This document shows, piece after piece, positions 5,604-49,453 of a stretch of 64,000 bases of DNA (the first letter of the stretch is position 1; every line of letters starts with the position of its first letter). The notes under the pieces were generated by a model. The model did no database searches. It was not told the origin of the DNA and saw only the letters and a program-made list of their open reading frames with translations. The stretch is from IMG/VR virus record IMGVR_UViG_3300021400_001366, positions 1-64,000 of that record; one strand, 5' to 3'. Both the position numbers and the translations under genes were made by a program. Source of the stretch: a virus. Its lineage: Duplodnaviria > Caudoviricetes.

Positions 5604-6440
5604 ATGAAGAACAACGAGAACATCAAGGCCCTGAACAAAATCAATCCCAAGGCTTTCCGCGCCCTGCGTCAAGAGGTCGGCTTCGACTTTGAAAAGCCCT
5701 TCGCCCTGTTCCGCATCGACGGTAACTTCACCGTTCGCAAGCTGGAAAATCTGATCGACGAGGCTGGCATGGATAGCCGCAATGACGCCGTTGCGCTCCT
5801 GATGCACGAGCCGCACTCCACCTGGCACAAAGACCTCCGGCTGGCCACGCTGAACCACGGAAAAATCGAGGTCGAGCATCGCGCGTATGGCCTGGGCAAC
5901 TTCTGGCGCAAGTCCGATTTCGAGGATATGCGCAAGTCCCGCAATGCTGAAACCTTCGTGATCGTCCAGTCCCGCGCTTTCATCAAAGCCCACGAGGAAA
6001 AGCCCATCGACCTGAACGGAAGATTTAAGACCGCGCCGCACCGCCGCACATGGAACGGATTCCGCGCCACTTCCAGCACCTACACGCTGGATAAGAGCGG
6101 CTACATCGTTGACATCCGCAAGGAAAATCTGAAGCAACGCGCCTACAATCTCCACAAGGAACGCGCGAAGAACGCCTATCTGCTGACGGACAACACCGCC
6201 AAGGTTGAGGAACTCCGCAGGAAGATCGCCGTCCGTAAAGCGGAAATTGTGAACGACCTGATCTCCGCAACTGATGCCCAGAGCGTCAAGGACGTGGCAA
6301 GCAAGCTGGATTGGGGCGGCTTGTACAGCGTCATGAGCCTGTTCGAGGATTACGAGCGCCTGACCAACACGCGCGGATATTCCAGCATCGAATCTTCGGA
6401 ACGCGCTTATAACACCATCCTGGAAAAGCTGGGCGCTTAA
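5604..6440 (+). CDS. hypothetical protein
   Basis: 278 aa ORF with AGGAGG RBS. Confidence 0.85.
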   Translation: MKNNENIKALNKINPKAFRALRQEVGFDFEKPFALFRIDGNFTVRKLENLIDEAGMDSRNDAVALLMHEPHSTWHKDLRLATLNHGKIEVEHRAYGLGNFWRKSDFEDMRKSRNAETFVIVQSRAFIKAHEEKPIDLNGRFKTAPHRRTWNGFRATSSTYTLDKSGYIVDIRKENLKQRAYNLHKERAKNAYLLTDNTAKVEELRRKIAVRKAEIVNDLISATDAQSVKDVASKLDWGGLYSVMSLFEDYERLTNTRGYSSIESSERAYNTILEKLGA

Positions 6441-37222: not shown

Positions 37223-37297
37223 AGTCCTTTAGTAGAGAAGTAAGCACACATGGCTTTGACCCATGGGAAGGTGGGGCAGTACCACCAAGGACTACCA
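37223..37297 (+). tRNA. trnQ: tRNA-Gln(UUG), atypical T-loop
   Basis: acceptor agtcctt/aaggact, anticodon arm catgg-ctTTGac-ccatg, T-loop GGCAGTA, CCA. Confidence 0.8.
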
Positions 37298-37726: not shown

Positions 37727-37802
37727 GCTTCCGTAACTCAATTGGCAGAGCAGCGCACTTGTAATGCGCAGGTTGTAGGTTCAAATCCTATCGGAAGCTC
37801 CA
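37727..37802 (+). tRNA. trnT: tRNA-Thr(UGU)
   Basis: cloverleaf, ctTGTaa, CCA. Confidence 0.95.
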
Positions 37803-37803
37803 T

Positions 37804-37955
37804 CGGGAACTAGCTCAGTAGGTTAGAGCAGCGGCCTTGGGGCGGTAGTGTAAAGAGCACACTAGAAAAGCAAGAGTCTAGTAGCGTAAGGGCGGTACTT
37901 AGACGCTCCACCAATAAGCCGTGTGTCCAGAGTTCAAGTCTCTGGTTCCCGACCA
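37804..37955 (+). tRNA. trnI: tRNA-Ile(UAU) split in the anticodon loop by a 75-nt insert (halves 37804-37838 and 37914-37955)
   Basis: joined halves give a 77-nt cloverleaf: cgggaac/gttcccg, gctc/gagc, gcggc-ctT|ATaa-gccgt, cagag-ttcaagt-ctctg, ACCA. Confidence 0.88.
37839..37913 (+). ncRNA. nested tRNA-like element ending in CCA
   Basis: ggggcg/cgctcc-A-CCA acceptor, gtgt/gcac D arm, ctaga/tctag arm with 10-nt loop, taag-GGCGGTA-ctta T arm. Confidence 0.8.
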
Positions 37956-37959
37956 TCAT

Positions 37960-38043
37960 GCCCGATTGGTGGAATAGCAGACACTCGGCACTTAAAATGC
38001 CGTACCGTTAGGTGTGCAGGTGCAAATCCTGTATCGGGCACCA
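37960..38043 (+). tRNA. trnL: tRNA-Leu(UAA)
   Basis: cloverleaf with variable arm, ctTAAaa, ACCA. Confidence 0.95.
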
Positions 38044-40910: not shown

Positions 40911-41696
40911 ATGATTCTGGTAACTGGCGATACGCATGGTGATTTCAGAAGATTCTCAACCTCCCGCTTCCCGCTTCAAAAGGAAATGACCAGGAGCGAT
41001 TTCGTCATCATCTGCGGTGACTTCGGCGGCGTTTGGAAGGATTCACCGGAAGAACGCTATTGGTTGGACTGGCTGAACGATAAGCCGTTTACTACGCTGT
41101 TTGTGGATGGAAATCACGAACATCATTTTAGGCTCAACCATGATTTTCCACTTCAAATGTTCGCCGGTGGTCAGGTTCATTGGATAAGAAGCAATATCCT
41201 GCATCTGATGCGCGGTGAAGTATACGAAATTGATGGCAAAAAGTTCTTCACATTCGGCGGCGCAAGTTCTCATGACATCCGAGATGGTATTCTTGATCCT
41301 GCTGAGTATGACAACCCCAGAGATTTCAAGCGTGACTACAATCTGATGGTTAGAATCAGGCAGCAGTTCAGGGTAAAAGGCGTTTCCTGGTGGCCTGAAG
41401 AGCTACCGAGCGACGCAGAAATGCAGCACGGCATTTATACGCTGGCAAAGCACGACAACAAGGTAAACTACGTGATTACGCATTGTTTGCCGCAGGAAGT
41501 TGCGTCAACATTTTCAATGGGGCTGTACAAGTCGGACAAGCTGACCATGTATTTCAATAGCTTGCTTCAAAACGGCTTACAGTTTGACCATTGGTTCTGC
41601 GGTCACTATCATGTTGATCGTCGCATAATGGGTAAGTTCGACATTATTTATGAAAACTTTATCATGCTAGGAGATGATGTCTATGAGCGAGTTTGA
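40911..41696 (+). CDS. calcineurin-like metallophosphoesterase
   Basis: GDTHG, CGDFG, DGNHE, ITH, GHYH. Confidence 0.92.
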   Translation: MILVTGDTHGDFRRFSTSRFPLQKEMTRSDFVIICGDFGGVWKDSPEERYWLDWLNDKPFTTLFVDGNHEHHFRLNHDFPLQMFAGGQVHWIRSNILHLMRGEVYEIDGKKFFTFGGASSHDIRDGILDPAEYDNPRDFKRDYNLMVRIRQQFRVKGVSWWPEELPSDAEMQHGIYTLAKHDNKVNYVITHCLPQEVASTFSMGLYKSDKLTMYFNSLLQNGLQFDHWFCGHYHVDRRIMGKFDIIYENFIMLGDDVYERV

Positions 41697-47092: not shown

Positions 47093-49453
47093 ATGTACTG
47101 CGGGTATATCACGACGATCAAAGAAATTCATAAACACTCAAACGCTGATAGGCTGGCCTGTGCGACGATTTTCGGCAACAATGTCATTGTCGATCTTACA
47201 TATGAACCTGGTAAGCGCGTCGTGTATTTTCCGGTTGATGGTCAGCTCAGCGAAGAGTTCTGCAAGGACAACGATTTGGTAAGGCGTAAGGACGAAAGCG
47301 GCAAGCAGGTTGGCGGCTATCTCGATCCTGATAAGCGTAACATCAGGGCAATCAAGCTGCGTGGCGAGAAGTCCGAGGGTCTGGCGCTACCGATTGAAAG
47401 CCTGTCAAAGTATTGCAACGTAGACGAGTTGAAGGACGGCGACCAGATCACCATTCTCAACGGGCATGAAATCTGCTGTAAGTACATTCCTAAACGCGAT
47501 CATAGCGGTGGAGGCTCTGGCGGCAACAGGACGCGGAGCAACAAAGAACGTGATAAGCAGGAGTGGCCGCTGTTTGAGCAGCATGTCGAGACTGAACAGC
47601 TTGCTTATAATGAGAGCGCATTTAAGCCCGGTGATACCTGTTACATCACGCTGAAGATGCATGGTTGTTTCTCATCTGGATGTAGGGTTAATCTATGGGC
47701 TGGTGGAAGATCGAAAACTATGTCGCAAGTTCAACCTGGCGACATCGTTATAGGTTTCAAAGATGGTAAATTAGTGCCATCTAAAGTTCTTGATAAGTAT
47801 AATAATGGCAAGGAAACTGAATGGCAAAAGATAATCATAGAAAGAAATGGAATGAACGGCGAAAAGTATTCAAAAATCCTTTGTACACCAGATCATTTAT
47901 TCTATGATTGGAAATTGCAAAAATATATTCGCGCAGACTCAATAAGGGCTGGCGATGAGATAATGATGGTCAAACAGACACCAATCCTATCAAGAGAAAT
48001 AAAGTCTGTGCTGCTCGGTATGTACTTAGGTGATGGACATTATGTAGAAAGAAACCGTGTTTCAAAACTTGAGTTTTCTCATAAAATAGATCATTCGTCA
48101 TATTTAGAATACATTGAAAAAATGTGCAACGGCTTGGTTAAAGTCGAAGATCGAATATATATATCTGGATATGGCACACAGATGATGAGGGCAAAGACAA
48201 AAGAATGCGTTGACATATATGACTTTTTCAATCTGTGGATTAATAAAACCGGAGGACACAAACTAACTGATAGCATCTTGGATTACTTCGATGAAATATC
48301 TCTAGCATATTTGTATATGGATGATGGTAGTTTGTCACACTCATCAATACAAACAGATAGGGCGGCAATTGCCATTTGCGATTATGACGATCATGATGCT
48401 ACACTTATAAGCAAATGTATAAGTAATCTAGGGATTGAGAATGTTCTATTTAAAGACCCTGATGGTTATAATAGGATAAGAATAAACAGGGAAGCATCTA
48501 TAAAACTGTTCGACATGATTTCACGATATATACCGGCAGTTATGAGGTATAAACTTCCTGAAGAATATCGTAACAGGGATTATATAGACACCCCGTTTGA
48601 TTTGGAATATGGCTACAAGCCGATCATTGTTAAGGTTGATTCAAGTGAACATGAGACACATAGAAAGATGGATAAATTCGATCTGCACACAGAAACGAAT
48701 AATTATGTTGTAGGCGGTATACTTGTACATAATTCGTCTGGGCGTACTAGCAACACCATCCATGTTCAGCAGAAGAAGCAAACCCTGATGGATAAGATTC
48801 TGCATCGACCTCCGAAGTATGAGCTTTCTTATGATGTAATCAGTGGAACACGGCGTACAGTCCTCAGAGACTTCGACCATGGCTATTATGGCAACGACGC
48901 TTTCCGCAAGGGATTCCATGATTTCTTCGCTGAAAGACTTCCTAAAAATACAGAAATTTTTTACGAGATCGTCGGGTGGGTTGACGAGAACACGCCTATC
49001 ATGGGTCGCTGCAAGAACAAACTCATCAAAGACCCTGAGTTCGTCAAGCAGTATGGCGAAGAAACTGTTTTCCACTATGGTTGCAAACCTGGTGAAAGTC
49101 GCTGTTTCGTTTACCGCATGACCATGACGAATCAGGATGGATTCACCGTCGAGATTCCTACGGAGCAATGCAAGCTGCTGTGTGAAAAGATGGGCGTTGA
49201 GTTCGTGCCTATCTTCGAGAAGTTCTTCTTTACGACTTGGGACGATCTCATGCAGCGCGTAGAGAAGTATTACGATGGCCCCGATCCGATTGGCAAGACG
49301 CATATCCGTGAAGGTGTGGTTGTGCGAATCGAGAACCGAGAAAAATTTGAAGCGTATAAGCATAAAAACTTTAGCTTCAAATGCCTCTCTGGGATCATTG
49401 CCGATAACACTGATGCCGACAAGGTTGACGAAGAAATCCTGAGCGAGATGTAA
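47093..49453 (+). CDS. ATP-dependent RNA ligase (DRB0094/Rnl2-like, N-terminal OB-like domain) containing an intein
   Basis: HSNADRL, KLRGEKSEG; motif I TLKMHG|SS restored by splicing; FYEIVG, REGVVVR, YKHK. Confidence 0.88.
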   Translation: MYCGYITTIKEIHKHSNADRLACATIFGNNVIVDLTYEPGKRVVYFPVDGQLSEEFCKDNDLVRRKDESGKQVGGYLDPDKRNIRAIKLRGEKSEGLALPIESLSKYCNVDELKDGDQITILNGHEICCKYIPKRDHSGGGSGGNRTRSNKERDKQEWPLFEQHVETEQLAYNESAFKPGDTCYITLKMHGCFSSGCRVNLWAGGRSKTMSQVQPGDIVIGFKDGKLVPSKVLDKYNNGKETEWQKIIIERNGMNGEKYSKILCTPDHLFYDWKLQKYIRADSIRAGDEIMMVKQTPILSREIKSVLLGMYLGDGHYVERNRVSKLEFSHKIDHSSYLEYIEKMCNGLVKVEDRIYISGYGTQMMRAKTKECVDIYDFFNLWINKTGGHKLTDSILDYFDEISLAYLYMDDGSLSHSSIQTDRAAIAICDYDDHDATLISKCISNLGIENVLFKDPDGYNRIRINREASIKLFDMISRYIPAVMRYKLPEEYRNRDYIDTPFDLEYGYKPIIVKVDSSEHETHRKMDKFDLHTETNNYVVGGILVHNSSGRTSNTIHVQQKKQTLMDKILHRPPKYELSYDVISGTRRTVLRDFDHGYYGNDAFRKGFHDFFAERLPKNTEIFYEIVGWVDENTPIMGRCKNKLIKDPEFVKQYGEETVFHYGCKPGESRCFVYRMTMTNQDGFTVEIPTEQCKLLCEKMGVEFVPIFEKFFFTTWDDLMQRVEKYYDGPDPIGKTHIREGVVVRIENREKFEAYKHKNFSFKCLSGIIADNTDADKVDEEILSEM
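47666..48733 (+). mobile_element. 356-aa intein with LAGLIDADG homing endonuclease
   Basis: starts CFSSG, CTPDH block B, LGMYLGDG and AYLYMDDG, ends VHN followed by Ser; AT-rich. Confidence 0.93.

Follow-up and report, generated by a model that had tools for sequence, protein, structure and literature searches.

The 64,000-nucleotide stretch analysed here (the window) covers the opening 64 kb of an IMG/VR virus record of 137.6 kb (IMGVR_UViG_3300021400_001366) and contains, on the plus strand within a tRNA array, a tRNA-Ile(UAU) gene, the only one of this phage, whose anticodon is interrupted by a second, tRNA-like sequence that we call the tRNA-like element (TLE). The 5′ half of the tRNA (positions 1-34, from C1 to C32, U33 and U34) occupies 37804-37838 (35 nt), the TLE 37839-37913 (75 nt, from G1 to an encoded ACCA), and the 3′ half (positions 35-73 plus an encoded CCA, beginning A35, U36, A37, A38 and ending in ACCA) 37914-37955 (42 nt). 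The TLE belongs to a conserved family of tRNA-like RNAs that is nested in the anticodons of three different phage tRNAs, and this anatomy is both solid and new. The mechanism by which such genes would give functional tRNAs is a well-motivated hypothesis; in our best reading, the TLE would be released by enzymes that mature tRNA ends and the two tRNA halves would be sealed by a phage RNA ligase.

The two halves were assigned from Rfam, from ARAGORN after excision of the insert and from an uninterrupted orthologue. When run with permissive filters, the Rfam tRNA model (RF00005, gathering score 29) matches 37804-37952 end to end (model positions 1-71, 49 bits, E 9e-9) while tolerating the insert. 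Excising exactly 37839-37913 leaves a 77-nt tRNA-Ile(UAU) that is called by ARAGORN with default settings and has four paired stems and the loop CUUAUAA; the covariance-model match, the cloverleaf and the 7-nt anticodon loop together make the outer gene a tRNA. Relatives were located via an adjacent 211-aa gene and the contigs were then compared. One of them, L007, has at 830-904 a tRNA without the insert; its D and anticodon arms agree with those in the window over 41 nt, and at the junction its sequence is CTT-ATAA (…GCGGCCTT|ATAAGCCGT…); in the window the 5′ half ends in ...GCGGCCUU and the 3′ half begins with AUAAGCCGU... Because this orthologue is uninterrupted at the site, the anticodon is UAU and the insert, which begins with GGGGCGG and ends with CTCCACCA, is exactly 37839-37913, between U34 and A35. 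An independent ENA assembly of a phage that is ~96% identical (L002) has the same nested gene with one base changed (151/152 identical). The original prediction for this stretch, a model's reading of the letters alone, had described a tRNA-Ile(UAU) with all stems paired, intact halves and the loop CU-UAU-AA, interrupted at 37839-37913 by a 75-nt cloverleaf-like insert running from G1 to an encoded CCA, and the excision, the Rfam score, the L007 orthologue and the sequence of the insert bear it out on each of these points. The nested gene is skipped by default ARAGORN and by the Rfam gathering filters. With its intron option (-i), ARAGORN forces an intron at 37/38 at the nested loci and misidentifies the tRNAs, reporting Ile as Pro, Lys as Gln and Trp as Leu. 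Its call of a tRNA-Pro(UGG) with a 75-nt intron at 37/38 in the window is an artefact, since the empty-site orthologues read CTTATAA.

All TLE copies are exactly 75 nt long, from G1 to RCCA. The copy in the window, delimited with covariance model R1 and alignment A1, has a 6-bp acceptor stem (1-6/66-71) extended by a purine-purine pair (G7·A65), a D arm (10-13/19-22), a stem (24-28/39-43) with a 10-nt loop (AAAGCAAGAG), a T-like arm (48-52/60-64) with the loop GGCGGUA, and the encoded ACCA. In the consensus of alignment A1, which comprises 12 non-redundant TLE sequences, the acceptor stem has 6 bp and ends in a purine-purine pair that is G·A in some copies and A·G in others; a D stem of 4 bp follows, and then a stem of 5 bp whose 10-nt loop, AAARCAAGRR, hardly varies. 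A G3·U70 pair, which would bear on alanylation by AlaRS, is present in 11 of the 12 copies. Pairing in the alignment is 86-100% for the acceptor, D and 24-28/39-43 helices and 62% for the T-like arm, whose loop reads RGCRRUA and which pairs well only in the Ile-nested copies. Six pairs are changed on both sides, and the covariation score of the alignment (0.227, against 0.103 for shuffles, 0 of 500 of which reach it, and at most 0.091 for slid controls) identifies the TLE as an RNA with conserved secondary structure. Model R1 gives the TLE of the window 93 bits and finds it to be the sole copy in the 137.6-kb record, and in each of 8 virus records searched there is exactly one copy, nested or free.

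By the usual standards the TLE is not itself a tRNA, given that ARAGORN makes no call, the loop has 10 nt, the T-loop reads RGCRRUA and GG is missing from the D-loop. It matches no family in Rfam, tRNA and tmRNA included, and a free-standing copy gave no tRNA or tmRNA hit at E values up to 10. The original prediction had remarked on the 10-nt loop and on the likeness of the GGCGGUA T-loop to that of a nearby tRNA-Gln (GGCAGUA, one base different), both of which we also find, but its view that the inner element had drifted does not hold: in L149 and L153, the only two alleles sharing a host tRNA that allowed the comparison, the TLEs are identical at 73 of 75 positions, the outer tRNA at only ~80%. 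Judged from its covariation and copy number, the insert represents a conserved phage RNA gene in its own right, present once per genome, rather than a decayed tRNA, and on the same comparative grounds the TLE is a new conserved phage RNA family whatever the mechanism of its removal. Several other identities were considered and rejected. Known self-cleaving ribozymes, tmRNA and Y-RNA-like RNAs gave no significant Rfam match and fail on geometry. The 10-nt loop does not appear to be a guide that pairs the exon ends (CAAG with CUUG at the Ile junction), as the same loop is shared by Ile-, Lys- and Trp-nested and free copies with no host covariation. Pairing of the T-loop GGCGG with a 3′ CCGCC is contradicted by L142, which has AGCAAUA there. 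A multicopy mobile element or MITE is contradicted by the single copy per record in the 8 records searched, by the lack of a target duplication and by the fact that the sole terminal inverted repeat is the acceptor stem.

Further TLE copies were found by pattern scans of IMG/VR, and the final scan with a 3′-half pattern returned the same 11 loci and nothing further. At least six further assemblies, independent of those of the window and L002, contain homologous nestings; they include Logan and several IMG/VR samples. In L009 a homologous 75-nt insert occupies the same CTT|ATAA site, and the tRNA-Ile(UAU) around it has another backbone, one that includes a long extra arm and is uninterrupted in the near relatives L003, L004, L008 and L010. 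A third tRNA-Ile(UAU) backbone is interrupted in L142 and L143, so that nesting in Ile(UAU) is seen in three unrelated backbones and always at 34|35. The TLE is found in a tRNA-Lys(UUU) in L014 and L021 (loop CUUU|UAA) and in a tRNA-Trp(CCA) in L149 and L153 (A1-U72, G73, loop CUCC|AAA), in both cases split at 35|36. Free-standing copies are present in five records (L148, L150, L151, L152 and L154), and in four of these (all except L151) the TLE lies 3-4 nt 3′ of an intact tRNA-Ile(UAU) and before a small membrane-protein open reading frame (ORF). This conserved 52-aa hydrophobic ORF (MNKYKFGR...) starts ~16 nt after the free TLE (L148:10163-10321, with homologues in L150, L151, L152 and L154). 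Because the same 75-nt unit stands free in tRNA arrays, the ends of the TLE are the ends of an independently processed RNA. The element was not found in GenBank phages, and with 0 hits in 185,579 prokaryote genomes there is no sign of prophage copies. Model R1 found no TLE in the examined parts of insert-free relatives or within the 7.6 kb examined in L199-L201; a metagenome pattern scan gave only chance hits among the matches listed (first 119), and a neighbour-protein search of IMG/VR and an exact 3′ pattern search gave nothing useful.

These comparisons also brought up other unusual tRNAs and tRNA-like RNAs. The Gln-like gene mentioned above, a tRNA-Gln(UUG)-like gene at 37223-37297 (+), scores only 36 bits with the Rfam tRNA model and is not called by ARAGORN; its acceptor, anticodon and T stems are good and its D arm is degenerate. 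Its T-loop GGCAGUA, inside the 10-mer GGGCAGTACC, is identical to the unusual loop of free-standing TLE copies, and a co-altered D/T-loop elbow may define a class of tRNAs and tRNA-like RNAs in this phage group. At L177 (G004:C1:106641-106765), 2 nt after an intact tRNA-Ile(UAU), there is a structured RNA of ~125 nt with the closing stem GGGCGGAG.../...CUCUCCACCC and a T-like arm, AGGGA-GGCGGUA-UUCCU. It gives no match to R1 and may represent a second tRNA-like RNA family beside tRNA-Ile(UAU). The L009-type backbone, a 'type B' tRNA-Ile(UAU) (L003:3226-3316, L004:3395-3484, L008:59-149, L009:591-757, L010:63-153), has an extra variable arm of ~20 nt with the conserved loop CUAACAA and two A·G mismatches atop the anticodon stem, which is unusual for a class I tRNA; in some of these loci ARAGORN -i wrongly reports a Pro(CGG) gene containing an intron of 6 nt.

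The value of the interrupted tRNAs as evidence depends on whether they are intact. After in silico excision of the 75 nt, all seven nested loci (six distinct genes) are called by ARAGORN (Ile four times, Lys once, Trp twice), each as a canonical tRNA with a 7-nt anticodon loop in which C32, U33, A37 and A38 are kept. Uninterrupted orthologues exist for Ile (L007 and G005), Lys (G004 and G005, with the same acceptor stem GCGCCAT) and Trp (G003). For all three identities, then, the insert is present or absent at the same site and its exact removal restores the gene, which is the operational definition of an intron and agrees with the intron-like nature proposed for it at the outset. In the four whole nested-copy records that were scanned (G000, G001, G004 and G005), no gene besides the nested tRNA has its anticodon, and sister genomes keep an intact gene for that anticodon. 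The outer Trp exons of L149 and L153 are ~80% identical, a neighbouring intact tRNA-Leu is 77% identical. The stems of the two Trp genes differ by three double compensatory changes (pairs 6-67, 11-23/24 and 49-65), several pairing-preserving changes and one broken pair, with the split anticodon loop unchanged. Although few sequences are involved, this substitution pattern is that of a working tRNA, not of a pseudogene; a transferred TLE may be an alternative account. A search of related phages for the insert with compensatory changes, which the original prediction had proposed as a check, has thus found both the nested alleles and the compensatory pairs. From these comparisons we consider that the outer tRNA is probably restored at the RNA level.

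As a mechanism for this restoration we propose that the nested unit would be transcribed within the tRNA array, whose tRNAs and nested gene probably share one precursor transcript, and that the TLE would be freed by tRNA end-maturation enzymes, with RNase P cutting between U34 and G1 of the TLE and a second endonuclease cutting directly after its CCA. The two tRNA halves would stay together through the acceptor, D/T and anticodon stems, leaving a nick with 3′-OH and 5′-phosphate ends in the anticodon, and a phage Rnl5-type ligase would seal this nick without end-healing to give a 77-nt AUA-decoding tRNA. The effect would be that of an intron with splice sites set by its own tRNA-like fold rather than by a ribozyme core or a bulge-helix-bulge. 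The insertions themselves may go back to tRNAs broken by anticodon nucleases, into which the ligase joined mature TLE RNA by mistake. Taken as a whole, release by tRNA-end enzymes followed by sealing by an Rnl5-type ligase is the best explanation available, and we would put it slightly short of an even chance; the particular enzymes (RNase P, a cut after CCA, an Rnl5 ligase) are named tentatively. That the interruption runs exactly from G1 to A75 in three different host tRNAs, and that the unit also stands free in tRNA arrays, argues strongly for boundaries set by tRNA processing. In every TLE copy position +1 is G and position -1 is U or C, the acceptor stem has 6-7 bp and the 3′ end is RCCA, features that are determinants of RNase P. 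A junction helix UUGG/CCAA could form with 4 bp in Ile, 3 bp in Lys and 2 bp in Trp; because the three host tRNAs share no junction structure, recognition must lie within the TLE.

The candidate sealing enzyme is a putative ATP-dependent RNA ligase of the Rnl5 family (DraRnl/NgrRnl-like) with a LAGLIDADG intein, assigned from profile matches and encoded at 47093-49453 (+), ~9 kb from the nested tRNA. It matches phrog_968 RNA ligase (E 6e-65) plus a LAGLIDADG endonuclease, and its Pfam matches are a PHA02142 OB fold, Hint/intein and RNA_ligase. The best NCBIfam hit is TIGR02306 RNA_lig_DRB0094, with 110.9 and 48.1 bits, below the equivalog cut-off of 151. An intein-free homologue in G004 matches the catalytic domain of the Naegleria RNA ligase (NgrRnl, PDB 5cot; E 2e-31), and homologues in related phages likewise lack the intein (e.g. 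L178:8143-9375, 410 aa). Each of the five related records tested also encodes a ligase that scores above the PF09414 cut-off, at a distance of 6-15 kb from its TLE. Rnl5 ligases seal 3′-OH/5′-PO4 nicks with an RNA 3′-OH strand (PMC5397189, PMC4408790), and their physiological functions have been described as uncharted (PMC5397189). This chemistry fits because RNase P and RNase Z-type cuts leave 3′-OH/5′-P ends, and, in line with the suggestion that a phage RNA ligase might rejoin the halves, a predicted ligase of the 3′-OH/5′-P type is encoded by the phage itself and in the five related records. The other neighbouring genes include a calcineurin-type metallophosphoesterase (40911-41696), which relatives also have next to their tRNA arrays. 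The neighbour genes scanned included none recognisable as a polynucleotide kinase, and no RVT_1 reverse transcriptase was found in 6 records, on which ground retro-insertion of the TLE by a phage reverse transcriptase was rejected.

A number of considerations weigh against the proposed pathway. We know of no general bacterial activity that cuts exactly after an encoded CCA and spares the downstream RNA. CCA inhibits the RNase Z of Bacillus, and only some enzymes (Thermotoga RNase Z and E. coli RNase BN) are known to cut after it. In the free-standing copies and in those nested in Lys and Trp, the T-like arm of the TLE is reduced to 2 bp; because of this weak arm, and because neither Rfam nor ARAGORN recognises the TLE as a tRNA, its recognition by RNase P is not assured. 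The outer acceptor stem of L153 has one A·C mismatch and one G·U pair. The pathway does not account for entry of the element into three different anticodon loops, and the 6 records searched encode no RVT_1 reverse transcriptase. The characterised Rnl5 ligases seal nicks in duplexes (PMC5397189, PMC4408790), and a nick in an anticodon loop is not in a duplex. The presence of the ligase also does not discriminate, because the ligase is found in phages with a free-standing TLE as well.

The outer tRNA could simply be dead, the TLE having landed in its anticodon loop so recently that the halves still look intact. Phage tRNA sets are dispensable and variable, and the outer acceptor stem of L153 has a mismatch; set against this, six of the six distinct nested genes, of three identities, are called as normal after excision, the three compensatory double changes between L149 and L153 accompany a divergence like that of the neighbouring tRNA-Leu, the two parts of the split loop add up to 7 nt in every case, C32, U33, A37 and A38 being kept, and three independent exact hits in anticodon triplets would be an odd coincidence for neutral insertion. 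We consider a dead gene unlikely, while placing it first among the alternatives. Next to it, and likewise unlikely, is a true intron removed by another route, in which a dedicated phage or host endonuclease, or self-cleavage of the TLE, would leave a 2′,3′-cyclic phosphate and a 5′-OH; after healing of these ends, the phage ligase or host RtcB would close the break. The metallophosphoesterase beside the array keeps such heal-and-seal chemistry in view, as calcineurin-type enzymes can be 2′,3′-cyclic phosphodiesterases in RNA repair; the conserved AAARCAAGRR loop looks as though it may be a protein-binding site, and a relative has a gene for Thg1-like tRNA repair. Against this route, a nuclease of this kind is not required for the free-standing copies, no polynucleotide kinase is recognisable in the neighbours scanned, and the TLE matches no known self-cleaving ribozyme family in the Rfam scans. 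A further unlikely account, which we rank after these two, is that the chimera itself is the product, with the outer tRNA serving as a scaffold that stabilises and presents the TLE in the manner of engineered tRNA-scaffold RNAs. RNAs inserted in a tRNA anticodon stem are indeed stabilised, the TLE is the conserved, single-copy part, and selection for a scaffold would also keep the outer stems. The five records in which the TLE has no scaffold at all speak against it, as do G+1, U-1 and RCCA, which should make the TLE an RNase P substrate and so split the chimera, and it leaves unexplained both the exactly canonical split loop and the status of the host as sole copy for its anticodon in the four records scanned.

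A classical tRNA intron, either of group I or a bulge-helix-bulge intron at 37/38 of a tRNA-Pro(UGG), is very improbable. ARAGORN -i does propose such a tRNA-Pro(tgg) with a 75-nt intron, the outer tRNA has the C1-G72 and A73 that are typical of bacterial tRNA-Pro, and the last base of the 5′ exon is U, which is also the case at group I sites; yet the uninterrupted orthologues read CTTATAA, and the same tool miscalls the Lys and Trp hosts. There is no match to RF00028 in either gathering or permissive scans, and group I is excluded because 75 nt is far too short, there is no core and the last base is A rather than G. No two 3-nt bulges flanking a 4-bp helix are present. The only junction helix in the Ile gene pairs U33 U34 G1 G2 with C73 C74 A75 A35 and is flanked by a 1x3 internal loop, and a bulge-helix-bulge is excluded because this helix is not conserved in the Lys and Trp genes and the splice sites lie inside it. 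The view that the insert is neither a group I nor a bulge-helix-bulge intron, which was taken before these analyses, is therefore sustained. Misassembly or a chimeric contig would be a concern for any gene whose source is a metagenome assembly, but is hardly credible here given the same junctions in the independent ENA assembly L002 and homologous nestings in Logan and several IMG/VR assemblies from different samples.

Our preferred reading, release by tRNA-end enzymes and resealing by a phage ligase, has parallels in several known systems. Group I introns of anticodon loops, such as that of the cyanobacterial tRNA-Leu(UAA) at U34|A35, also interrupt the loop, share the 34|35 site with the Ile genes and a 5′ exon ending in U, and vary between relatives in presence but not in position, with exons that stay intact. 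In contrast to the TLE, which has 75 nt, no core and a terminal A and also occurs free-standing, they are >200 nt long and have a ribozyme core and a terminal G. The bulge-helix-bulge introns and the split or permuted tRNA genes of archaea and eukaryotes are alike in being small and non-catalytic, in that non-canonical positions are possible and in using protein enzymes and a ligase, and archaeal and eukaryal tRNA introns can carry other functional RNAs, such as box C/D RNAs. The TLE differs in having no bulge-helix-bulge motif and no common junction structure in its three hosts, and the products of the splicing endonuclease EndA differ from the 3′-OH/5′-P ends expected for the TLE; to our knowledge a splicing endonuclease does not occur in bacteria or their phages. 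In mitochondrial tRNA punctuation, the t-elements of plant mitochondria and the mascRNA of MALAT1, RNase P and a 3′ endonuclease excise a tRNA-shaped module from a longer transcript and so set the ends of the RNAs on either side, as proposed here. In all these known cases the flanks are not re-joined, whereas the flanks of the TLE are the halves of another tRNA and would need ligation. Such ligation has its counterpart in the tRNA repair of T4, in which Pnkp and Rnl1 counter the anticodon nuclease PrrC; there a break in an anticodon loop is resealed by a phage RNA ligase and the classic target, tRNA-Lys(UUU), is also a host of the TLE. In T4 repair the break is inflicted by a defence nuclease and sealed by Rnl1, whereas here it would be programmed by the gene itself and sealed by an Rnl5 enzyme with no healing needed. 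By analogy, the proposed TLE pathway would work most like tRNA punctuation or mascRNA processing followed by T4-style resealing. The species 1 and 2 RNAs of T4, small stable RNAs that lie in tRNA arrays and are processed with the tRNAs, are likened to the TLE by description only, and we know of none nested within a tRNA.

The array in which the nested gene lies has the same-strand order Ser, Thr, nested gene, Leu, with Pro and Leu further along. A tRNA-Thr(UGU) (37727-37802, +; ARAGORN and Rfam, 64.8 bits) ends 1 nt upstream of the nested gene and a tRNA-Leu(UAA) (37960-38043, +; ARAGORN and Rfam, 49.8 bits) begins 4 nt downstream, and the order Thr - Ile(UAU) - Leu(UAA) is kept in relatives. 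Free-standing HNH_3 endonuclease genes are found in the tRNA arrays of insert-free relatives (L003:3341-3868, L004:2303-3025 and L008:174-701), that of L003 being directly 3′ of tRNA-Ile(UAU), and they may drive shuffling of this region. In a more distant relative (L199:1-216 and 5810-6241), a Thg1-like enzyme, of the family of tRNA 5′-end repair, and a PemK-type toxin are encoded beside the tRNA array; as far as the gene assignments go, they are a further investment in tRNA repair or conflict in the phage group. CUA-anticodon tRNAs, which ARAGORN labels 'Pyl' and which are amber suppressors, occur in related phages (G001:C1:50570-50643; G004:C1:105503-105588 and 117034-117116), and TAG may be recoded in part of the phage group.

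Introns in tRNA genes are textbook markers of the domains of life, with group I introns in bacteria and introns spliced by an endonuclease and a ligase in archaea and eukaryotes. The literature that we searched, with incomplete coverage and so as absence of evidence only, holds no tRNA-like element nested in a tRNA and no RNase P-dependent splicing. The TLE might be a third kind of tRNA intron, a functional tRNA-like gene removed by RNase P and a post-CCA cut with joining by an Rnl5 ligase, a proposal that we put forward as tentatively as the enzymes themselves. If true, it would represent a new splicing logic, punctuation plus ligation, and the first protein- or RNase P-dependent tRNA splicing pathway in the bacterial world. 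It would also provide the first physiological substrate for the Rnl5 ligases, giving these nick-sealing enzymes a concrete candidate substrate, and would tie phage RNA-repair enzymes to gene expression, beyond counter-defence. What the phage would gain is a matter of speculation, and the TLE could make the tRNA a conditional AUA decoder or shield it from anticodon nucleases. The nested genes also reveal a blind spot of annotation, since they are missed by default ARAGORN and the Rfam gathering filters and are given the wrong amino acid by intron-aware ARAGORN. In bacterial viruses, nested TLEs indicate that tRNAs can be interrupted, and are probably re-joined, in a manner not described before.

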